From: Candidatus Nanohaloarchaea archaeon | GTDB lineage: Archaea > Nanohalarchaeota > Nanosalinia > Nanosalinales > Nanosalinaceae | Reading direction: 5' to 3' | Length of the DNA: 16,872 nt | Assembly: GCA_042217585.1 (NCBI GenBank) | Contig: JBDGSJ010000022.1 | Span: forward strand, 1 to 16,872 | In this document: piece by piece, positions 37 through 15,216 of the stretch | Layout: every line of letters begins with the position of its first letter | Numbering within the stretch: position 1 is the stretch's first letter | Program-made: the position numbers and the translations under genes | Notes under the pieces: generated by a model | Seen by the model: the letters and a program-made list of their open reading frames with translations, nothing else | Told to the model about the DNA's origin: nothing | The model's database searches: none

Positions 37-954
37 TTACAGGGAGAGCTGGTAGATGTAACGGGTCATCGAGCCGTGGACGTAGACCGAGTGGTCCGGC
101 TCCATCCCCCTCAGTTCTTCCCTGTCGGAGACCACGACCGCCCTGTCCGCCAGGCCCTCGAGGACGTCGAAAAGGTCCTCAACGGGGTTTCCCTCCGTCT
201 TCGACGCCTTGCCGTACGGGAGGTCAGTCACGACCGCGTCCATCCCCCCGAACATCTCGAGGGCCTCCGATACCTCGCCCTGCTGGATGTCATGGACTAT
301 CACGCCGTACTCCTCAAGGTTCTCCCGCGTCCCCTCCACCATCTCCTCCTGGATGTCGAGGCCGTGGACCCCCACGCCGCAGAGCCCTGCCTCGATCAGT
401 ATCCCGCCGGTCCCGCAGAACGGGTCCAGGACGTGTCCTCCGGGTTCGACGCCAGAGAGGTTCACGAGGACCCTTGCCAGCACGGGATCCATGGAGACGG
501 GTGACTGGAAAGGTCTCTCCTCGTTCTCCCTTTTTTGAAAAAGGCCGCGGTCTATGTCCTCGACGGTCCTCCCGATGACGTACTGTTCCTCGAAGCCGTA
601 GACGCGGACGGTTTCCCGTGGATGGTCGAGGTCCACCTCGTTCTCCTCCGTGGAGAGCACCTCTCCCAGTTCTCTCTCGATCTCTTCCTCGCGGTCCCCT
701 GCGTAGTCCTTCGCCCTGACCGCGAAACGGCGTTCAGGCCTGTAATCCGTGTCGAGCTCTCCCGTCCTTTCCACGACCTTCACGGCCTCGTGGGTCAGCG
801 CCAGTCTCTTCAGCTGGTCCGGCTCCGAATCCGTGAACGCTATCCTGTCGGTCCTCTCCGGTTCCTCCTCCACGCCCTGGGACCTGAGGAAACCCCGGAG
901 TTCTGCCTCCGCGAGCTCCAGGTCCTCCCCGGCCAGCCTGTACGCGTATGTCAC
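37..954 (-). CDS. trm11: THUMP-domain tRNA (guanine-10-N2)-methyltransferase (Trm11/TrmG10 family), ~305 aa
   Basis: C-terminal part of ORF 37..1791. Motifs RPFQSPVSMDPVLARVLVNL, VLDPFCGTGGILIEAG (SAM binding) and TDLPYG. The likely start is GTG at 954, which overlaps the upstream TGA as GTGA. The ORF-track extension to 1791 is an out-of-frame overlap with the neighbouring gene. Confidence 0.88.
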   Translation of the reverse strand: MTYAYRLAGEDLELAEAELRGFLRSQGVEEEPERTDRIAFTDSEPDQLKRLALTHEAVKVVERTGELDTDYRPERRFAVRAKDYAGDREEEIERELGEVLSTEENEVDLDHPRETVRVYGFEEQYVIGRTVEDIDRGLFQKRENEERPFQSPVSMDPVLARVLVNLSGVEPGGHVLDPFCGTGGILIEAGLCGVGVHGLDIQEEMVEGTRENLEEYGVIVHDIQQGEVSEALEMFGGMDAVVTDLPYGKASKTEGNPVEDLFDVLEGLADRAVVVSDREELRGMEPDHSVYVHGSMTRYIYQLSL

Positions 955-1952
955 CGCGGACCACCCTGTTTGTCTATCGTGGCTAGCGAGATGTACCCTA
1001 TCAGGAGTCCGGGCCAGTAGGTCGTCAGCCTGAACAGCACCCCGATTATTATCGCGAGGTGGGGTGGAACACCCATAAGGACGTTGAGGACGCCCGCCAT
1101 CATCGCCTCGTAGGCGCCCGTCCCTCCAGGCGTGGGTGAGAACTGGGCGAGGTCCCCGACCGCCAGCACGAAGTAGAGCGGTGTGAAGTCGGGGTCCATC
1201 CCCAGAGAGAACATGATGAAGTAGAGGGAGAGGACCTGGAAAAGGAAGGAGAGGTGTGCGACCGCCGCGGTTTCGAGGAGGTGGCGCGGGTTCTCCCCTA
1301 TCATGTCGAAAGACTCCTCGAGCTCGTCGAGCCAGTCCTCCGCCCGGTCGACCAGCGATTCTCCACGTCCGAGGAAGTCTGAAACTTTTTCGAGGGAGGC
1401 AAATACGTATCCCTCTATCAGGCCGGCCCGGAACCACAGCACGTAGACGAGTGCTCCGCCCAGCATCATTACTACGGTGGAGACGTAGGCGAGCTGGAGC
1501 ACAAGATCGTTTACAGATTTGAAGAAAAGCATGTAGAAGGTCCCGCCTATCACGAAGGAGAAGCCGGGGAGCGCGTTGACTATGTCGGCGGAGAGGACCG
1601 CGGAGAGGGATCTCTCGTATCCTGATTCCGTGTTCTGGTTTATGACGTAGGCCATGAATGGTTCTCCGCCGAACTGTCCGAGCGGTGTCACCGAGTTCAT
1701 GAAGCTCCCGGCCATGAAAAGCCTGAGAGTGTACAGGTAGGAGAGATCCAGACCCATCTTCTTCAGGAACTGGTACCAGGTGTTGGCCCACACCGGGAAG
1801 ACCGCCATCCCGAAGACCAGTGCAGGGATGAGCGGGAGGAGGTCAGCCTTTCCCAGCGAGTCGATTATCTTGCCGGTGTCCGAGAAGTAAACCATGCCGA
1901 CCAGTATCAGGGTCGCGACCCCGAACCAGAGCCACTTGTTGTCCTTCTCCAT
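951..1952 (-). CDS. UPF0104 / lysylphosphatidylglycerol-synthase TM-domain (flippase-like) membrane protein, paralog 1
   Basis: 333 aa, multiple hydrophobic helices, family motifs FMNSVTPLGQFGGEP, SPTPGGTGAYE and LFRLTTYW. Confidence 0.85.
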   Translation of the reverse strand: MEKDNKWLWFGVATLILVGMVYFSDTGKIIDSLGKADLLPLIPALVFGMAVFPVWANTWYQFLKKMGLDLSYLYTLRLFMAGSFMNSVTPLGQFGGEPFMAYVINQNTESGYERSLSAVLSADIVNALPGFSFVIGGTFYMLFFKSVNDLVLQLAYVSTVVMMLGGALVYVLWFRAGLIEGYVFASLEKVSDFLGRGESLVDRAEDWLDELEESFDMIGENPRHLLETAAVAHLSFLFQVLSLYFIMFSLGMDPDFTPLYFVLAVGDLAQFSPTPGGTGAYEAMMAGVLNVLMGVPPHLAIIIGVLFRLTTYWPGLLIGYISLATIDKQGGPR

Positions 1953-2757
1953 CTCTATCCTCTCACCGGTTCCACACCGATTTTATTGTCACCGTTCTTT
2001 TTGAAACAGGACCTGTCAGGACTCGTCAAGTGAAAGCAGTGCCAGGTATCCCAGCGCTATACCCGGCCAGTAGGTCGTCATCCGGAACAGTATCGCCGCT
2101 ATCAGGGCGACCGGGAAGCTCAGGCTCATGAAGACGGTCAGGACCGATGCCATCGCGGCCTCGAAGGTCCCGGAGCCTCCAGGCGTGGGTGAGAACTGGG
2201 CCAGCCCCGAGACCGCCAGCACGAAGTAGAGCGGCGTGAAGTCGGGGTCCATCCCCAGAGAAAACAGGATGAAGTAGAGGCAGAAGACCTGCGACAGGAA
2301 GGAGAGATGCGCGATGACAGCGACCCTGAAAAGGTCCTCCGGCTCCTCCCCGATCATCTGGAAGGACTCCTCGAACCGGTCGGTCCACCTGTCAGCCTTC
2401 CGGACGAGCGATTCCCCGCGGCCCAGAACCCCCGATAACCTCTCCAGCAGGCTGAGGACCTGGTCCTCGATGGTCCCGGCCCTGAACCAGAGGGTGTAGA
2501 TGATGGAGCCTCCGAGGAGGAATACAAGCAGCGCTATGTAGGTGACCTGGAGGAACAGGTCGTTGACGGATTTGAAGAACAGCATGTAGAGCGCCCCGCC
2601 GAATATGAAGGTGAGGACCGGAGCTCCATTTACCACGTCGGCGGAGAACACCGCGGAGAGGGATCTCTCGTAGCTTGCGTCGGTGTTCCTGTTTATGACG
2701 TAGGCCATGAACGGTTCTCCGCCGAACTGTCCGAGCGGCGTCACCGAGTTCATGAAG
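1123..2757. repeat. Direct-repeat blocks shared by the two flippase-like paralogs (offset 1053 nt)
   Basis: By manual alignment, 1123-1208 vs 2176-2261 match at 80/86 nt and 1638-1704 vs 2691-2757 match at 65/67 nt. Confidence 0.9.
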
Positions 2758-3005
2758 TTTCCCGCCATGAAGAGCTTCAGGGTCTTCCTGTAGCTGACGT
2801 CCAGGTTCATCTGCCGGAAGAAGCTGTACCACGTGTTCGCCCATATCAGGAAGACCACCATCCCGAAGAAGAACGCCGGGACCAGGGGGAGAAGTTTCGC
2901 GCTCCTGACCGCATCGAGGAACTTCCCGACGTCCGCGAAGTAGATCATCGCGGCGAATATCAGCGTCGTGACCCCGAACCAGAGCGCCCTGCTGTCAGTA
3001 TCCAT
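2016..3005 (-). CDS. UPF0104 / lysylphosphatidylglycerol-synthase TM-domain (flippase-like) membrane protein, paralog 2
   Basis: 329 aa with the same motifs (FMNSVTPLGQFGGEP, SPTPGGSGTFE, LFRMTTYW); colinear with 951..1952. Confidence 0.85.
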   Translation of the reverse strand: MDTDSRALWFGVTTLIFAAMIYFADVGKFLDAVRSAKLLPLVPAFFFGMVVFLIWANTWYSFFRQMNLDVSYRKTLKLFMAGNFMNSVTPLGQFGGEPFMAYVINRNTDASYERSLSAVFSADVVNGAPVLTFIFGGALYMLFFKSVNDLFLQVTYIALLVFLLGGSIIYTLWFRAGTIEDQVLSLLERLSGVLGRGESLVRKADRWTDRFEESFQMIGEEPEDLFRVAVIAHLSFLSQVFCLYFILFSLGMDPDFTPLYFVLAVSGLAQFSPTPGGSGTFEAAMASVLTVFMSLSFPVALIAAILFRMTTYWPGIALGYLALLSLDES

Positions 3006-3282
3006 ACCTGTTTACAGCCCCGCACTCCTCGCAGGTGTAGTTCACGGTGTCGTTCTTCGAGTTTATGCGGACCGTGCAGTTCTCGCCCGGCAGGAGGAAG
3101 CTCTCGCATTCGTGGCAGTACTGCTTCCTGAGCCCGGACGGTATCGAGACCTGGGTCTTCATACCTATCTTCAGTGCCAGCTCCACGTACCGGTCCGCCA
3201 GCTCCTTCCTCCCGTTCTCCATCCGCCTTCTCGCCAGCGTGAAAAGCCGTTCGATGCGCTCCCGGGCGATTTCCTCCGCCAT
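2995..3282 (-). CDS. rnp4: Ribonuclease P protein component 4 (Rpp21)
   Basis: 95 aa; IARERIERLF, ADRYVELA and zinc-ribbon CHEC...CEECG..RY motifs. Overlaps the next gene by 11 nt. Confidence 0.93.
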   Translation of the reverse strand: MAEEIARERIERLFTLARRRMENGRKELADRYVELALKIGMKTQVSIPSGLRKQYCHECESFLLPGENCTVRINSKNDTVNYTCEECGAVNRYGY

Positions 3283-3321
3283 AGTTTCAAAAGTGTCGGC
3301 AGAAGTTTATACCTTACTTCG
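3283..3321. promoter_or_regulatory. Divergent promoter region rnp4 / glycosyltransferase
   Basis: 39-nt AT-rich gap. Minus-strand GTATAAAC (3312-3305) lies about 22 nt before the rnp4 ATG; plus-strand TTTCAAAA lies near 3285-3292. Confidence 0.55.
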
Positions 3322-4329
3322 ATGAGGATCAGCCACTACTTCGAGTGGGAGGACCAGATAACCGGAGGACACGCCCAGTCCGTGAAGAACCAGCGGAAGA
3401 TACTGGACCGCCGGGGCATCGACTACACCACAGAGCCGGACCTCGACGCAGACATCCTCCACCTCAACAACATGGGCCCTAAATCTGTTTACTACGCGAA
3501 GAAGGCCCGCGAGAGAGGTATCCCGGTCCTGGTCCACGCCCACCAGACCGCGGAGGACTTCAGGGAGAGCTTCTTCCTCTCCAACCTGCTCGCGGTCCCG
3601 CTGAGACCTTACCTCGAGTACGCGTACTCCCTGGCGGACCACCTGATATGTCCCTCGGAACACAACCGCGAGGTGATGGAGGGCTACTCCGACGCGGAGA
3701 AGACGGTCATAAGCAACGGGTTCGACCCGGACAAGCTGGAGGGCTTCCAGGACCTCAGGGAGGAGTACCTCGACAGGTACGACCTGGAGCCGCCCGTCGT
3801 GTTCTGCGTCGGCCACGTGATAAAGAGGAAGGGGCTTGAGAAGTTCATAGAGACCGCCAGGCAGATGCCGGAGCTGGACTTCGCCTGGTTCGGCTATATC
3901 AACCCGATGGGCGAGGGAGCTCTCGGATCGGTCCTCCAGAGCAGGGACACGAAAAAGCTGGTCGAGGAATCCCCGGACAACTGCACCTTCACGGGATACA
4001 TAGAAGACGTCAGGGGAGGATTCGCCGCCGGAGACATATTCTTCTTCCCGACCAAGAACGAGAACGAGGGTATGGCGCTCCTCGAGGCGATGCACTGCGG
4101 AAAACCGGTTGTGGTCCGCGATATCGAAACATACACCTGGCTTGAAGACGGCAAGGACTGTCTCAAGGCGGAGGAAGATTTCACCGGGGAGTTAGAGGAA
4201 CTGAAGGATGAGGAAAGAAGGGAGAAGCTGGGAGAGCGTGCGAGAGATGTCAGCAGGCAGTTCAGGCTTGAGAACGTCGGTGACAGGCTCGTGGAACTTT
4301 ACAGGGACGTGCTCGAGGACCGGAGCTGA
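3322..4329 (+). CDS. GT4 glycosyltransferase, CpoA/LafB-like putative diglycosyl-lipid synthase, ~335 aa
   Basis: Start corrected to ATG 3322 (MRISHYFEW). Motifs HAHQTAEDFRESF, ISNGFD, RKG and EX7E (ENEGMALLE). Confidence 0.85.
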   Translation: MRISHYFEWEDQITGGHAQSVKNQRKILDRRGIDYTTEPDLDADILHLNNMGPKSVYYAKKARERGIPVLVHAHQTAEDFRESFFLSNLLAVPLRPYLEYAYSLADHLICPSEHNREVMEGYSDAEKTVISNGFDPDKLEGFQDLREEYLDRYDLEPPVVFCVGHVIKRKGLEKFIETARQMPELDFAWFGYINPMGEGALGSVLQSRDTKKLVEESPDNCTFTGYIEDVRGGFAAGDIFFFPTKNENEGMALLEAMHCGKPVVVRDIETYTWLEDGKDCLKAEEDFTGELEELKDEERREKLGERARDVSRQFRLENVGDRLVELYRDVLEDRS

Positions 4330-4390
4330 GAGAGCCTCTTGATATGTTTTTCAACGCTCAGAGGGGTTCTGGCCGCTGAGAATCCACCTG

Positions 4391-4397
4391 TATAAAA
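4391..4397 (+). promoter_or_regulatory. TATA box, probable leaderless transcript
   Basis: TATAAAA ending 23 nt before ATG 4421, typical archaeal spacing. Confidence 0.65.
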
Positions 4398-4420
4398 GAG
4401 CTTGTGAGTTAATCCGGTGC

Positions 4421-5461
4421 ATGAGGGTCGGATTCTTCTCCGACAGCTACTTCCCGGAGATAGACGGGGTCTCCTACACGCTGAAGTCGTGGAGGGACCG
4501 GCTGGAGGAGAGAGGTCACGAAGTATACATAATCTACCCGGACTCCGACAGGTACGAGCCGGGCGAACGGGAGATACCTGTACCTTCACTGCCGAATCCT
4601 TTCTACAGCGGCTACAATGTCCCGTTCCCGGTCAACACCGGGAGATTCCCCGAGGTCGATGTGGTCCACTGCCACTCGCCATTCAACCTCGGACGGGTGG
4701 GAAGGTACTACGCGAGGATCAGGGACCTGCCGACGGTCTACACCCACCACACGCCGGTTGAGGAGTACTTCGAGCAGGCGACCCGGAGCGAGGCGATGGC
4801 GAAGATGATAGAGAAGTTATACCTCCCGCTCGAGAACAGGTTCATGAGGAAGTTCGACACCGTGACGTCCTCCACCTCACGGATAAACAGGGATGTCGAG
4901 ACGGTCCAGCTGCCGGTCGGCCTGGACATGAGGTTCTTTGAACCCCGGGACGGATCGTTCGTCGACGAACTTGAAGGTCCTGTCGCGGGGTACAGCGGCA
5001 GGATAAGCATGGAGAAGAACGTGGAGAAGCTGCTGGAGTTCGCCGGCGGTTTCGACGGGACCGTGATGATAGTGGGTGAGGGACCGCGGAAGGAGGCACT
5101 GGTCAGGAAGGCGCCGGATAACGTCGTGTTCAGGGATTTCCTGGACCGGGAGAAGCTTCCCGAGTTCTACTCCGGTATCGACGTTTTCGTCACTGCCTCG
5201 ACCGGCGATACGCTTGGTCTCTCGACGCTCGAGGCCAACTCCTGCGGCACACCGGTCGCGGCGCCTGACGTCCCTCCCTTCGACGAGACCATACAGGGGG
5301 AGAACGGCCTCAGGTACGACCTTGATGATATGGAGGATATGAGAGAGAAGATCCGGGGATGCCTCAAGGGCGAGTTCAGCACCAGGGAGGCGGTCCGGGG
5401 TTACTCACTGGAGAAAACCATCGACGGTCTCGAAGAAATTTATACAGCTATCACGGGTTGA
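4421..5461 (+). CDS. GT4 glycosyltransferase, LafA/MGS-like putative monoglycosyl-lipid synthase
   Basis: 346 aa; MRVGFFSDSYFPEIDGVS, VHCHSPF, YTHHT, GRISMEKN and DX7E (DTLGLSTLE) motifs. Confidence 0.87.
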   Translation: MRVGFFSDSYFPEIDGVSYTLKSWRDRLEERGHEVYIIYPDSDRYEPGEREIPVPSLPNPFYSGYNVPFPVNTGRFPEVDVVHCHSPFNLGRVGRYYARIRDLPTVYTHHTPVEEYFEQATRSEAMAKMIEKLYLPLENRFMRKFDTVTSSTSRINRDVETVQLPVGLDMRFFEPRDGSFVDELEGPVAGYSGRISMEKNVEKLLEFAGGFDGTVMIVGEGPRKEALVRKAPDNVVFRDFLDREKLPEFYSGIDVFVTASTGDTLGLSTLEANSCGTPVAAPDVPPFDETIQGENGLRYDLDDMEDMREKIRGCLKGEFSTREAVRGYSLEKTIDGLEEIYTAITG

Positions 5462-10661: not shown

Positions 10662-12137
10662 ATGTCTATGGAGGGCAAGAAGGTAGTGGTGGTCGGAGGA
10701 GGTTTCGGAGGTCTCTCGGCCGCCTGTTTCCTCGCCGATAGTGGAACAGAAGTCGAACTGATAGAGAAGAACGATCACGTCGGGGGTAGAGCCTCTGTGC
10801 TGGAGGAAGAAGGCTTCAGGTTCGACATGGGTCCCTCCTGGTACCTGATGCCCGACATATTCGAGAGGTTCTTCGGGAAGTTCGACCGGGAGCCGGAGGA
10901 CTACTACGAACTGGACAGGCTTGAACCCAACTACAGCGTCTTCTTCAAGGACGGGGATCGCATGGACGTACCCGCCGACCCTGAGAAGGCCGCCGAGATG
11001 TTTGAAAGCTATGAGAGCGGTGCCGGGGACGCCTTCATGGACTACCTGGAGAAGTCCAGGGAGACGTACGAGGTGGGAATGAGCGAGTTCGTGCTGAAGG
11101 ACCGCAACAGTTTCAGGGACTACCTCTCCCTGGACGTGCTGAAGAACGCCAGGAACCTGAGCCTTGTGAAGAAGATGGAGGACCACGTGGACAGCTACTT
11201 CGACCACCCGAAGATAAAGCAGGTGCTCCAGCACACCCTGGTGTTCCTCGGGGGCTCGCCGTCGAACACGCCCGCGCTCTACAACCTGATGAGCCACGTC
11301 GACTTCAACATGGGCGTATACTACCCGGAGGGAGGTATCTACTCGGTCGTGGAGGCGATGAAGGATCTCGCGGAGGAGAAAGGAGTGGAGATCAGCACCG
11401 GCGAGGAGGTCCTCGCCATCGACCGGGACGGAAAGCCGGTCGTCAGGACCGAGGAAAGGACCGTGAAGGCGGACGCCGTGGTCTCGAACGCGGACTACGC
11501 CTACACCGAGACCCGGCTGCTCCCGGAGGAATACACCACGTACGACGAGGACTACTGGGATTCCCGGACCTACGCCCCCTCCGCGTTCCTGATGTACCTC
11601 GGGGTCGACGACGAACTGGAGGAGCTTGACCACCACAACCTGGTCTTCCCGGAGGACTGGGACCCGCATTTCGAGAAGATATTCGACGATCCCGGACTGC
11701 CGGAGGACCCGGCATACTACGTCTGCAACCCTTCCCACACCGATGACTCGGTGGCGCCGGAGGGGAAGTCCGCGATATTCATACTGGTGCCGGTCGCGGC
11801 CGAACTGGAGATGTCCGATAGCGATGTGGACGAGTTCCGGGACCTCGTGATCTCGGACTTCGAGGAGCAGACCGGCGCGGACCTGGAGGAAAACATAGTT
11901 TACGAGAAAGTCTTCAGGGGAGAGGACTTCTCCGAGAGGTACAACAGCTACAACGGGACCGCGCTCGGGATCGCGCACACATTGACCCAGACCTCGGTCT
12001 TCAGGCCGGGCCAGCGCTCGAAGAACATGGAGGGCCTCTACTACGTCGGCCAGTACACCAACCCCGGCATCGGCGTGCCGATGTGCCTCATAAGCGGGGA
12101 GCACGTCGCGGAGAAGGTGGAGGAGGACCTTGGATAG
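10662..12137 (+). CDS. crtD: Phytoene desaturase family protein; by position the carotenoid 3,4-desaturase CrtD (CrtI-like)
   Basis: 491 aa (alternative ATG at 10668); GGGFGGL FAD motif, GFRFDMGPSWYLMPD and PGIGVPMCLISG. First gene of a haloarchaeal-style crtD-lyeJ-cruF operon. Confidence 0.85.
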   Translation: MSMEGKKVVVVGGGFGGLSAACFLADSGTEVELIEKNDHVGGRASVLEEEGFRFDMGPSWYLMPDIFERFFGKFDREPEDYYELDRLEPNYSVFFKDGDRMDVPADPEKAAEMFESYESGAGDAFMDYLEKSRETYEVGMSEFVLKDRNSFRDYLSLDVLKNARNLSLVKKMEDHVDSYFDHPKIKQVLQHTLVFLGGSPSNTPALYNLMSHVDFNMGVYYPEGGIYSVVEAMKDLAEEKGVEISTGEEVLAIDRDGKPVVRTEERTVKADAVVSNADYAYTETRLLPEEYTTYDEDYWDSRTYAPSAFLMYLGVDDELEELDHHNLVFPEDWDPHFEKIFDDPGLPEDPAYYVCNPSHTDDSVAPEGKSAIFILVPVAAELEMSDSDVDEFRDLVISDFEEQTGADLEENIVYEKVFRGEDFSERYNSYNGTALGIAHTLTQTSVFRPGQRSKNMEGLYYVGQYTNPGIGVPMCLISGEHVAEKVEEDLG

Positions 12138-12957
12138 ACTGAAGTACCTGCTCAAGCTTTCCCGTCCCCGTTTCTGGATGTACCTCGCCGGACCGGCGCT
12201 GGTGGGCCTGGTGTACGGCGACCTGTCCGCGGTTCTCACACCTGAAGGCCTGGGCCTCCTCATATACTTTCTCCTGCCGGCGAACATCGCCCTCTACGGC
12301 ATAAACGACTACTTCGACCGCGACATAGACGAGGAGAACCCGAAGAAGGAGGAGAAGGAGGAGGTCTACCGGGGGGCGCGCTGGGTGGACCTGACCGTCG
12401 CTATATCCGCGGCGCTCTCAATTCCCGTAGCGCTCACGCTGTCCTCCCGGACCTGGCCGTGGTTCGCCGCCTTCCTTTTCCTCAGCGTGGCTTACAGCGC
12501 GCCTCCCCTCCGGTTCAAGGCCAGACCGTTCCTTGACTCGCTGAGCAACGGTCTCTACCTGACCCCGTTCGTGATAGCCTACGTTCACGCCGCGGGAGGT
12601 CTGCCGCCGGTGGAGGTCCTCGCGGGCGGCTGGCTCTGGACCATGGCGATGCACACGTTCTCCGCGATACCGGATATAGGTCCGGACAGGAGGTCCGGGG
12701 TCGAGACGACCGCTACCTTCCTCGGGAGGGAGAGGACCTACGGTTACTGCACCGCGGTCTGGTCGCTCTCCGCCGTCTCCTTCGCCACTCACTCGGCCCT
12801 GCTCGGCGCCCTCTTCTCTTTCTACCCCCTGCTCTGCGCCGCCGTCTACCTCTCCGGCGTGGAGGACTCGCGCGCCTACTGGTGGTATCCGTACATAAAC
12901 GGCCTGACTGGGATGGTGATAACGCTCTACGGACTGAGGGTGCTTGTCGGTGGATAG
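12130..12957 (+). CDS. lyeJ: Lycopene elongase/hydratase (UbiA-family prenyltransferase)
   Basis: 275 aa; SRPRFW, YGINDYFD..ID..NPKK, YSAPPLRFK.RPFLDS and HTFSAIPDI.PDR motifs. TTG start preceded by AGGTGGAGG. Confidence 0.9.
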   Translation: MDRLKYLLKLSRPRFWMYLAGPALVGLVYGDLSAVLTPEGLGLLIYFLLPANIALYGINDYFDRDIDEENPKKEEKEEVYRGARWVDLTVAISAALSIPVALTLSSRTWPWFAAFLFLSVAYSAPPLRFKARPFLDSLSNGLYLTPFVIAYVHAAGGLPPVEVLAGGWLWTMAMHTFSAIPDIGPDRRSGVETTATFLGRERTYGYCTAVWSLSAVSFATHSALLGALFSFYPLLCAAVYLSGVEDSRAYWWYPYINGLTGMVITLYGLRVLVGG

Positions 12958-13732
12958 GCTGGACCGGCTGGTCTCGGAGAACAGGTTCACGATAGCGGTC
13001 CTTTTCCCTCTTGTCGGAGCCCTGATGTTCGTCGCGTCCGCGGAGCAGATGCTTCCCGGACCCCTCTCCTTCAACCCCTACCTGATTATCCTCGGCACAG
13101 TGGTGATGAGGCTCCCGCTCATAGCCGGGCTGGAGCCGCTGATGGACCGGAAAGCGGTCCTGGGGCTCTCCGCCCTCACCCTTTACGCCTACCTCGTCGA
13201 GTACGTCGGCATCAGGACCGGGCTGCCGTACGGCGAGTTCGAGTACCTGGTCCAGCTCGGACCGATGGTGGAGGGAGTGCCGCTGGGACTCCCGGTCTTC
13301 TTCATACCCCTGGTCCTGAACTCCTACCTGCTGGTCAGGCTGTACGACCCCGGGAGAAGGTTCCGCAGGATCGTCGCCGTGATAGCCGCGGTACTGCTGA
13401 TAGACGCGGTCCTGGACCCGGCGGCGGTATCCCTCGGCATCTGGACGTACGCCTCGGGCATCTACTACGGCGTCCCGGTCCAGAACTTCCTGGGATGGGT
13501 TCTCAGCGCGGCTGTCGCGACCCTCCTGCTCGAGTACTCTCTGGACGGGGACGCGCTCAGCGAGAGGCTGGTATCCACGGACTTCATGCTGGACGACATG
13601 GTCAGCTTCACGGTCCTCTGGGGCCTGGTGAACCTGTACTACTTCAACATCGCACCCTTCCTCGTCGCCGCTTTATTCGCCGCCGCTCTCTGGAACGCGG
13701 ACAGGTTCAGCTTCGTCTTTCAGACGAGGTAG
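12950..13732 (+). CDS. cruF: Bisanhydrobacterioruberin hydratase (carotenoid hydratase)
   Basis: ENRFTIAV.FP, GLPYGEF, LDPAAV, YYGVP.QNFLGW and FMLDD.VSF motifs. GTG 12950 is preferred over TTG 12944 because GAGGGTG lies 7 nt upstream. Confidence 0.88.
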   Translation: MDRLDRLVSENRFTIAVLFPLVGALMFVASAEQMLPGPLSFNPYLIILGTVVMRLPLIAGLEPLMDRKAVLGLSALTLYAYLVEYVGIRTGLPYGEFEYLVQLGPMVEGVPLGLPVFFIPLVLNSYLLVRLYDPGRRFRRIVAVIAAVLLIDAVLDPAAVSLGIWTYASGIYYGVPVQNFLGWVLSAAVATLLLEYSLDGDALSERLVSTDFMLDDMVSFTVLWGLVNLYYFNIAPFLVAALFAAALWNADRFSFVFQTR

Positions 13733-14640: not shown

Positions 14641-14747
14641 GAGGGACCTTCAGTCCGGAACGGGTAAAAAACGTGGGTCTGGGTTGCTCTGGAAGATAAC
14701 GAGCTTTCCGTCCACCATGAATGCTCAGGAGCGCTCAGATTTTCTGA

Positions 14748-14758
14748 AATATAAAAAA
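14748..14758 (-). terminator. U-rich archaeal terminator candidate
   Basis: TTTTTTATATT on the minus strand, shortly after the last helix of the candidate RNA. Confidence 0.5.
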
Positions 14759-15140
14759 GGAGGAGTGGGAAATGTTCCCGCCTCTGGGATGCGGACTTGT
14801 CTTGTTTTCCCTCTTTCCAGGGAAGTTCCACAGGGTTTCCGACTTATGGATCGACGTTCAGGGTGCTGTGAGCGTTTTCGGTCCTACAACCTCTCCAGTC
14901 TTGAATCGTAGCTTATTTGGTCCGTGCTTTTTCCCGGAAGGTGATATGGCCGGCGGATTTCGGTTGGGTCCTGTCGCCCGGGGCCCGCTGAGTTGCGAGC
15001 CAGGCCAGGTTTCCCCAACCTACTAATCCTGTATCAAAAATACAGGATATTCGGCACGGAGATAGTCTGATAGAAAACGCTCGCATTACCCCTGGCACGT
15101 TGCTCCATTCCGGAAACCGGGCCATGGGCTATGCGAGTCA
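14753..15140 (-). ncRNA. Candidate large structured ncRNA of unknown family (~390 nt)
   Basis: Only long gap in the window without a credible CDS. At least nine helices, several with G-U pairs that work only on the minus strand. Upstream TTTTATAAA and downstream U6 tract. Confidence 0.62.
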
Positions 15141-15163
15141 TATCTCTATATTGCGCAGCAGGG

Positions 15164-15172
15164 TTTATAAAA
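15164..15172 (-). promoter_or_regulatory. TATA box for the candidate ncRNA
   Basis: Consensus-like TTTTATAAA about 23-26 nt upstream of the first helix. No protein gene begins in either direction here, apart from a doubtful 35-codon ORF. Confidence 0.6.
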
Positions 15173-15216
15173 GTTTGCGACCAATAAGACGGTTTCATCC
15201 GGAAACGCCCTCACCC

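Follow-up and report, generated by a model that had tools for sequence, protein, structure and literature searches.

Small open reading frames (ORFs) in the bacterial dual-function RNAs RNAIII, SgrS, SR1 and AzuCR are 26–43 codons long. Small ORFs enclosed in a stable structure that includes long-range pairing also occur in the bacterial type I toxin mRNAs hok and aapA1, which are multi-copy and patchily distributed, and the short frame inside transfer-messenger RNA (tmRNA) varies in its middle, has a hydrophobic conserved end and has its stop codon in a hairpin loop. OLE, GOLLD, ROOL and raiA, all in Rfam, are large RNAs with covarying helices, invariant loops and high expression, and their biochemical role is unknown. 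To our knowledge, large structured archaeal RNAs beyond ribosomal RNA (rRNA), RNase P RNA and signal recognition particle (SRP) RNA are almost unknown and the DPANN lineages have hardly been examined; we know of no tmRNA in archaea. Transcripts that join a very small ORF to a functional RNA part, such as RNAIII, SgrS, SR1 and AzuCR of bacteria and the Methanosarcina mazei spRNAs, make dual-function RNAs and archaeal small-protein RNAs an established kind, as far as the accessible portions of the relevant reports go (PMC12612679, PMC12310071, PMC8915982, PMC11456600, 10.1101/2025.10.28.685009). Here we describe a locus that compares with these systems in a 16,872-nucleotide (nt) stretch of DNA from a Candidatus Nanohaloarchaea archaeon (contig JBDGSJ010000022.1 of assembly GCA_042217585.1; hereafter, the window), where an earlier note made from the sequence alone had proposed a stand-alone structured RNA of ~390 nt and unrecognised class on the minus strand at 14753..15172.

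Compared with the dual-function RNAs, the RNA part at this locus is much bigger and more elaborate, with invariant strands in a junction, a 59-nt extended hairpin and long-range helices, and the ORF is leaderless, lies inside the structure and has its stop codon fixed in a hairpin loop. In size class, helices, loops and expression the RNA is like OLE, GOLLD, ROOL and raiA, but it matches no Rfam model, is archaeal rather than of bacteria or phages, and carries a conserved frame. With hok and aapA1 it shares the buried ORF, long-range pairing, multiple copies and patchy occurrence, although its peptide is not hydrophobic and it has no conserved antisense promoter. The pattern of the frame and the stop in a loop recall tmRNA, whereas the frame has its own 5' ATG and ARAGORN detected no tRNA-like domain.

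We favour, with moderate confidence, the reading that the locus is a stand-alone, clade-restricted gene for an abundant ~390-nt structured RNA that would also be translated, that is, a dual-function RNA in which translation would be coupled in cis to folding. Our confidence that this is a real structured RNA with a conserved ORF, taken by itself, is much higher than that in the whole reading, and our confidence in the coupling of translation to folding, taken by itself, is much lower. The RNA represents a new, uncatalogued family, of which we found in print only two mis-oriented fragments.

Relatives of the element were recovered within one nanohaloarchaeal family. By BLAST, 11 of 24 genomes of the same family had homologues, and none of 16 genomes of four other families did. 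The comparative alignment covers the 5' 218 nt of the RNA (15145-14928), the 3' half not being alignable with the relatives. A first covariance model, built on these 218 nt, had matches in 27 of 49 other genomes of the family, and 20 genomes of four sister families gave none; a second, 106-nt core-only model built from 42 sequences returned the same 27 of 49 when run over the same 70 genomes of the phylum. A pattern scan added 24 further loci in metagenome contigs, so that the relatives for which the earlier note had suggested a search do exist in nanohaloarchaeal genomes and metagenomes. No locus was found when viral contigs were scanned for the core pattern. Some contigs (G055:C70, G056:C60, G006:C1 and metagenome L054/L055) carry two or three diverged copies on the same strand, 0.5–1.7 kb apart. 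The ORF was kept in 3 of 4 extra diverged copies examined (one in G055, two in G056), and the second copy in G006 lacks both promoter and ATG.

The fold was supported by covariation. Among 54 distinct homologues, 96.0% of helix cells were paired compared to 87.0% in shuffles, none of 500 shuffles reached the observed values, and double changes were seen in 26 of the 38 pairs; in slid controls only 34–45% of cells were paired. The proposal of a real, highly structured RNA is thus upheld by strong covariation among relatives. G·U or U·G cells numbered 201 and A·C or C·A cells 28, and this excess identifies the window's minus strand as the folded one, an asymmetry that the earlier note had seen in the window copy. 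Minus-strand folding energy was −145.2 kcal/mol (z −4.0; 0 of 100 shuffles equalled it), and the plus strand was even better relative to its shuffles (z −5.0); folding energy therefore cannot settle either the strand or the reality of the RNA. Of the per-strand energy check that had been suggested, the expectation that the minus strand would beat shuffles was borne out, and the choice of strand was not.

The alignable part is made up of hairpins P1, P2 and P3 and the junction strands flanking P3 (Table 1). The three helices of P3 (helices 3–5) comprise 21 pairs, 96–99% paired, of which 14 have double changes, and the P3 loop (CAACUCAG; CAACU(C/A)AG) is invariant or nearly so in 42 sequences. 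AGUA before P3 and GAA(A) after it stand in what we take to be the orientation of a loop-E or bulged-G motif. In P2, covariation was confined to divergent members; the codons for I-L-Y lie in the 5' strand of this hairpin, and the stop codon is made up of loop bases and the first stem base. P2 may be frozen in sequence while the other helices covary because it must both encode I-L-Y and pair. A 4-base-pair (bp) helix that might close the junction of P2 and P3 gave a weak signal (77.3% paired vs. 73.4% for shuffles, of which 8 in 500 did as well; one pair with a double change). A 5'–3' terminal helix, in which AGAUAUG would pair with a CAUAUCU ahead of the T-run, was attractive in some groups and proved no better than shuffles. 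The complement of the invariant P3 loop (CTGAGTTG) was not commoner than control in five complete genomes, and none of its listed matches fell in mapped 16S rRNA or RNase P RNA genes.

The earlier view of the RNA as purely non-coding did not withstand the comparison, as family members preserve an open 35-codon leaderless frame whose stop lies in the P2 loop. Nothing in these sequence comparisons spoke for ribozyme activity. The frame was open in all 39 equal-length members, while the other two frames were open in 1 and 3 of the 39. Its variable codons (median pairwise identity 41%) contained 0 stops, compared to 14 and 82 in the other frames and to 46.5 ± 6.2 in shuffles (minimum 28 in 500). 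The nine ATG-to-stop length variants (+60, +60, −15, −6, −6, +9, −3, −3 and +3 nt) are all multiples of three; the exceptions to the frame are one 1-nt deletion (L067, compared with its near-twin L065), one GTG in place of ATG and one truncated second copy that has no ATG. A homologous 60-nt insertion, in frame in three sequences, adds two extra covarying hairpins. The stop codon T(G/A)A consists of the last two bases of the P2 loop and the first base of the stem, a position in the loop that is fixed even in divergent paralogues. The frame is, as judged from this conservation, probably translated, or at least kept translatable. Two marks of a dual-function RNA were found: a small ORF under selection to stay open (39 of 39 open, insertions and deletions in threes), and RNA structure beyond coding need, P3 and the junction strands, its best-conserved regions, lying after the stop. 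Read-through of the stop was considered and rejected, the frame behind it closing within 20 codons in 10 of 50 members. The insertion occurs in L058 542-819 and L062 542-819 (proteins P0003 and P0005), members of two different subgroups, and the peptide bearing it has 55 residues with a shared QIQ..DLL..E stretch.

In 49 of 51 members of the family, the ATG is preceded by a TATA-like motif whose first base lies 30 nt ahead of it. The long ORFs of the window genome have such a motif at −31..−28 in 52 of 791 crude ORFs, against 0–5 per position elsewhere. Leaderless mRNAs are common in haloarchaea, and the ATG–TATA spacing, coinciding with the genome's own TATA peak, is the signature of a leaderless mRNA. 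This conserved archaeal promoter shows where transcription is predicted to start, at the invariant ATG or a few bases before it. The neighbouring genes of 10 homologous loci all differed, with some downstream genes on the other strand, and no family recurred among the relatives in 18 flanking proteins of those 10 loci; the gap occupied by the element measures ~450–570 nt in each genome. Differing neighbours around a gap of constant size indicate a gene of its own and not the leader of another. With a conserved B recognition element (BRE) and TATA promoter before it and an oligo-U tract after it, the element is the stand-alone transcription unit it had been proposed to be. A base-by-base reading likewise found all helices of the earlier note in place on the minus strand, with the TATA box on the 5' side and the U6 tract on the 3' side (Table 1).

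Table 1. Features of the RNA locus, in window coordinates and in 5' to 3' order of the minus strand.
Feature	Position	Strand	Basis and observations
Promoter: purine-rich BRE-like stretch and TATA box (…AAACTTTTATAAA)	15164..15178	minus	Sequence reading and conservation
TATA box TTTTATAAA	15172-15164	minus	Sequence reading
Leaderless small ORF, 35 codons (MTRIAHGPVSGMEQRARGNASVFYQTISVPNILYF); ATG 15141-15139, stop TGA 15036-15034	15034..15141	minus	Frame conservation
P1 hairpin (CUCGCAU…AUGCGAG), within ORF codons 2-21	15080..15137	minus	7/7 pairs with double changes, 91.6% of cells paired, 54 sequences
CUCGCAU with AUGCGAG helix	15137-15131 / 15086-15080	minus	Sequence reading
10-bp long-range helix GAGCGUUUUC with GAAAACGCUC	15082-15073 / 14879-14870	minus	Sequence reading
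UCCGUGC with GCACGGA helix	15060-15054 / 14927-14921	minus	Sequence reading
Possible 4-bp closing helix GCCG with CGGC	15055-15052 / 14949-14952	minus	Would close a ~107-nt three-way junction with P2 and P3
P2 9-bp hairpin AUCCUGUAU-UUUUG-AUACAGGAU	15026..15048	minus	Near-invariant sequence; 96.2% paired
Junction strand AGUA	15021..15024	minus	AGUAGG invariant in 42/42 core sequences
P3 extended hairpin (59 nt), two internal loops, apical loop AACUCA at 14994-14989	14962..15020	minus	Helices 3-5
Junction strand GAAA	14958..14961	minus	GAA invariant in 42/42 sequences
3' domain	14759..14948	minus	In relatives, sequence variable and length constrained; window copy GC-richer and hairpin-rich
CUACGAU/GUUGUAG hairpin	14911-14884	minus	Sequence reading
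3' strand of 10-bp long-range helix	14870..14879	minus	Present in window copy; 13/200 shuffles do as well
CACAG/CUGUG hairpin	14870-14829	minus	Sequence reading
UUCCCU/AGGGAA hairpin	14824-14807	minus	Sequence reading
UCCGC/GCGGG hairpin	14795-14777	minus	Sequence reading
U6 tract, likely terminator	14758-14753	minus	Sequence reading; T-rich runs close the unit in most relatives

Two pieces of the RNA are already in print. Five 'ncRNAs' with RNA-seq support were reported in 2023 for the cultivated nanohaloarchaeon Ca. Nanohalococcus occultus (PMC10266531). Its Supplementary Table S3, as far as accessible, lists SVXNc_nc0004 (140 nt) at 39,795 reads per kilobase per million (RPKM) and SVXNc_nc0003 (115 nt) at an RPKM of 15,317, where typical coding-sequence rows range over 362–5,063. 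By eye, SVXNc_nc0004 is letter for letter the reverse complement of the core of one family member (L050 1515-1654), and SVXNc_nc0003 that of its 3' domain (L050 1364-1478). In the portions of that paper available to us the two are labelled organism-specific, without BLAST match and 'putative rancRNA with H/ACA boxes', and these portions hold no statement on whether the library was stranded and no description of the family, the covarying structure, the promoter, the single transcription unit or the ORF (PMC10266531). Comparison with published nanohaloarchaeal ncRNA lists, which the earlier note had recommended, thus turned up two fragments and slightly reduced the novelty of the RNA. A conserved 266-nt Nanohaloarchaea intergenic RNA (STRG.4577.1) has also been described from strand-specific metatranscriptomes (PMC7002113), and it may or may not be the same RNA. 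Contigs of two DNA sequencing runs contain the window, and one of these runs may be its source. A 185-nt contig of a relative's core was present in one metatranscriptome run; it gives neither strand, ends nor level and was not counted as expression. The accessible part of Table S3 of PMC10266531 further lists a highly expressed RNA of unknown family, SVXNc_nc0001 (322 nt, RPKM 39,987), which might be a divergent RNase P RNA of that organism.

The encoded peptide is conserved only at its ends, with a start of M-[ST]-H-x-A and an end of S-N-[LP]-[NF]-I-L-Y-x. Entropies at the three codon positions were 0.98, 1.19 and 1.13, a variability without codon periodicity. Eleven independent close pairs showed 34 synonymous vs. 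100 non-synonymous codon changes, close to neutral, with 41/67/70 differences by codon position. Ser, Thr, Asn and basic residues abound in the peptides, which have a short hydrophobic end and no hydrophobic span of transmembrane length. Searches of the peptide against Pfam and NCBIfam gave only stray single matches (E>0.1), the best ESM Atlas score (0.87) lay below a meaningful level, and AlphaFold2 run on 35 sequences gave no confident fold (predicted local distance difference test score, pLDDT, 57). A profile search of 1.84 billion representative proteins found three family members, all unnamed (two with the insertion and one an extended call), and the exact 35-residue sequences of three members were absent from a collection of 15 billion proteins; gene callers almost never predict the ORF. 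Constraint thus falls more heavily on the RNA, in which AGUAGG, the P3 loop and GAA do not vary, than on the drifting peptide.

These data bear first on a rival reading that we judge unlikely but worth serious attention, in which the 35-residue peptide would be the functional product and the fold a stabilising, translation-gating untranslated region of a leaderless small-protein mRNA. The open frame, the leaderless-start geometry of the ATG, the conserved termini of the peptide and the third-position wobble at several conserved residues would all follow from it, and the double duty of coding I-L-Y and pairing would explain a frozen P2 beside a covarying P1 and P3. However, the near-neutral pattern of change, with the second codon position as variable as the third, and the absence of a confident fold or family match speak against a peptide product, and the P3 loop and junction strands, which are not translated, are invariant in all 42 sequences, more than stability needs.

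In the dual-function reading that we prefer, the folded RNA would be the main working part, with the P2–P3 junction as a platform for a putative protein or RNA partner, and the peptide would probably be of secondary importance. The ORF lies within helices, namely P1, the long-range helix to the 3' domain, and P2. With the ORF inside helices and its stop fixed beside conserved untranslated elements, a ribosome would have to open P1, the long-range helix and P2. Translation of the mini-ORF would then act in cis: a ribosome coming from the 5' end would melt these helices and, by the usual ribosome footprint distances, would terminate with its leading edge, at the mRNA entrance, against P3 and the AGUA/GAAA motif. 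Its passage might switch or license the fold of the RNA, its binding of a partner or its stability, and the activity of the RNA might thereby be tied to the translational state of the cell.

Several points weigh against this reading. The cis-remodelling step is one we infer from geometry alone. The conserved residues A5, S15, S28 and N29 vary mostly at the third codon position, a wobble that may point to some function of the peptide itself. The published fragments omit the first 64 nt (the ATG and P1) and a 36-nt gap and are printed in the opposite strand, and the abundant species could be processed pieces. The family is also patchy, with no match in 22 of the 49 family genomes; five of good quality (one of them a single contig) were empty even at E<=0.1 with laxer filters. 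The empty good-quality genomes mean that the RNA is clade-restricted, neither universal nor essential.

The 3' domain adds a motif to the picture. The 3' half of the relatives is A/C-rich and cannot be aligned across genera; the 3'-half hairpins listed in the earlier note are present in the sequence of the window copy (Table 1). Relatives have long-range helices of other sequence, from the P1–P2 linker to the tail (14, 12, 9, 8 and 8 bp), which individually were better than at least 95% of shuffles in 5 of 50 members. In the window copy, the first 3 nt of the 5' strand of the long-range helix are also used by the CUCGCAU/AUGCGAG helix. The motif GGUGA(U) occurs 99–120 nt after the core, with a T-run 45–60 nt further on, in 19 of 50 members with tail sequence; the window copy has AGAGGG where relatives carry it. 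GGUGAU is the Shine-Dalgarno consensus of the organism, in which 50 of 69 occurrences of GGTGA fall between −15 and −9 relative to an ATG. It can also pair with the 16S rRNA 3' end GGAUCACCUCC of relatives, to which it is complementary, and, partly by eye, seems to pair with upstream sequence in some groups. A second ORF behind GGUGAU was considered and rejected, as no consistent start codon was seen by eye.

A bolder version, which we regard as improbable, would have the RNA engage its own ribosome. A nascent chain of some 35 residues is about what it takes to fill the exit tunnel, and the stop in the P2 loop, reached after ~35 leaderless codons, might park the terminating ribosome at the P3/loop-E platform, while GGUGAU could pair with the 16S rRNA 3' end in many members. 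The RNA would then be a new ribosome-docking or translation-sensing ribonucleoprotein of these host-dependent nano-archaea.

A module resembling a type I toxin, with a harmful small peptide encoded on a stable mRNA silenced by its own fold, seems very doubtful, and we know of no type I toxin system in archaea. Sequestration of the whole ORF in helices, including the long-range one to the 3' domain, is what such a module would look like, and so are the patchy occurrence, the two to three tandem copies per locus in G055, G056, G006 and one metagenome contig, the lack of synteny and a peptide variable in sequence and fixed in length. The peptide, however, has no transmembrane-length hydrophobic span, the RNA level is very high, and no antisense promoter is conserved (TATA-like motifs on the other strand in at most 6 of 51 members per 20-nt bin), although an antitoxin RNA might still be encoded in trans.

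Still less plausible is a purely non-coding structured RNA or ribozyme in which the open frame is accidental. Strong covariation, invariant loops, peptide conservation without codon periodicity and the 1-nt deletion inside the frame of L067 are all in keeping with it, but chance would hardly keep the frame free of stops across 39 sequences whose median identity is 41%, when shuffles have at least 28, nor make the nine other length variants all multiples of three, nor place the ATG at the leaderless start position of the genome's own genes.

The RNA matched no known class, as the earlier note had surmised. Rfam 15 gave no match in the whole window at gathering thresholds; at E<=10 the region returned only snoR122 (16.4 bits) and DUF3800-XI (12 bits), far under their cut-offs, and 15 homologous loci at E<=1 gave one stray C/D-box match (19.5 bits). 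The exclusion of RNase P RNA, SRP RNA, tmRNA and tRNA also held, covariance models and ARAGORN being negative at the locus. ARAGORN found 0 tRNA or tmRNA genes in the window. The genome has its SRP RNA (RF01857) elsewhere (G000:C6:29374-29645, 125 bits), with no match in the window, and its 5S rRNA (RF00001) is likewise on another contig; all 4 relatives tested also have their 5S genes away from the element. The likeness of the core to 5S rRNA is confined to a ~107-nt junction with an AGUA/GAA motif. RNase P RNA (RF00373) had no match in the window, and in each of the seven relatives in which the model matches and the element also occurs (G001, G002, G005, G010, G017, G019 and G021), the two are at separate loci. 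In the whole window genome (G000, 89.7% complete) this archaeal model found nothing. Matches to RF00373 in relatives are mostly far below the gathering cut-off (20–93 bits vs. 84, with 7 of 41 genomes above it), and several good-quality genomes, as well as the complete genome behind L050, have none. In this nanohaloarchaeal family, RNase P RNA has apparently diverged beyond the reach of the current model.

An H/ACA-type ribosome-associated ncRNA on the opposite strand can be given next to no credence. An H/ACA guide RNA is recognised by three features: a large pocket inside its hairpin, a K-turn or K-loop and, 3' of the stem, an ACA box. The core consensus has internal loops of 1–4 nt only and CGAAA after the stem, that is, neither a pocket-sized internal loop nor a K-turn or ACA box where these features would require them, and no Rfam H/ACA model matched the region at E<=10 or the 15 homologues at E<=1. 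The label in the accessible supplement of PMC10266531 and the good folding of the plus strand (z −5.0) are countered by the 201 to 28 ratio of G·U to A·C cells, the promoter and the T-run, all of which place the RNA on the minus strand.

The genes upstream of the RNA locus encode a HAD hydrolase and an alpha/beta hydrolase, and the gene downstream a YdjM-like membrane protein. A cis-acting leader or riboswitch for this YdjM-like gene (14640-13720), although the RNA lies upstream of it on the same strand, is almost certainly the wrong explanation, as the downstream genes differ in every relative, some being on the other strand, and the U6 tract and a further 110 nt intervene. These 110 nt (window 14752-14641, minus strand) hold a second T6 run at ~14670 and a possible 22-codon ORF with an ATG near 14707. 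GC content at the RNA locus is 0.50–0.54, below the 0.61–0.66 of the flanking genes, as had been estimated. The only family to recur nearby is PF04240: in relative L003 it is immediately adjacent to the element, and in the window it is one gene removed; this carotenoid-biosynthesis gene adjoins one for a UbiA-family prenyltransferase (window 12130-13732, plus strand).

What the published record holds as two 'organism-specific' RNAs of the opposite strand the present data point to as one conserved gene, a family with clear covariation, high published expression and a promoter of its own that is limited to part of one nanohaloarchaeal family. Cultivated members exist, which makes experiments feasible (PMC10266531). 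With a frame that stays open while its peptide drifts, and a stop beside the most conserved elements of the RNA, the family would offer a testable case of mechanically coupled translation and folding.

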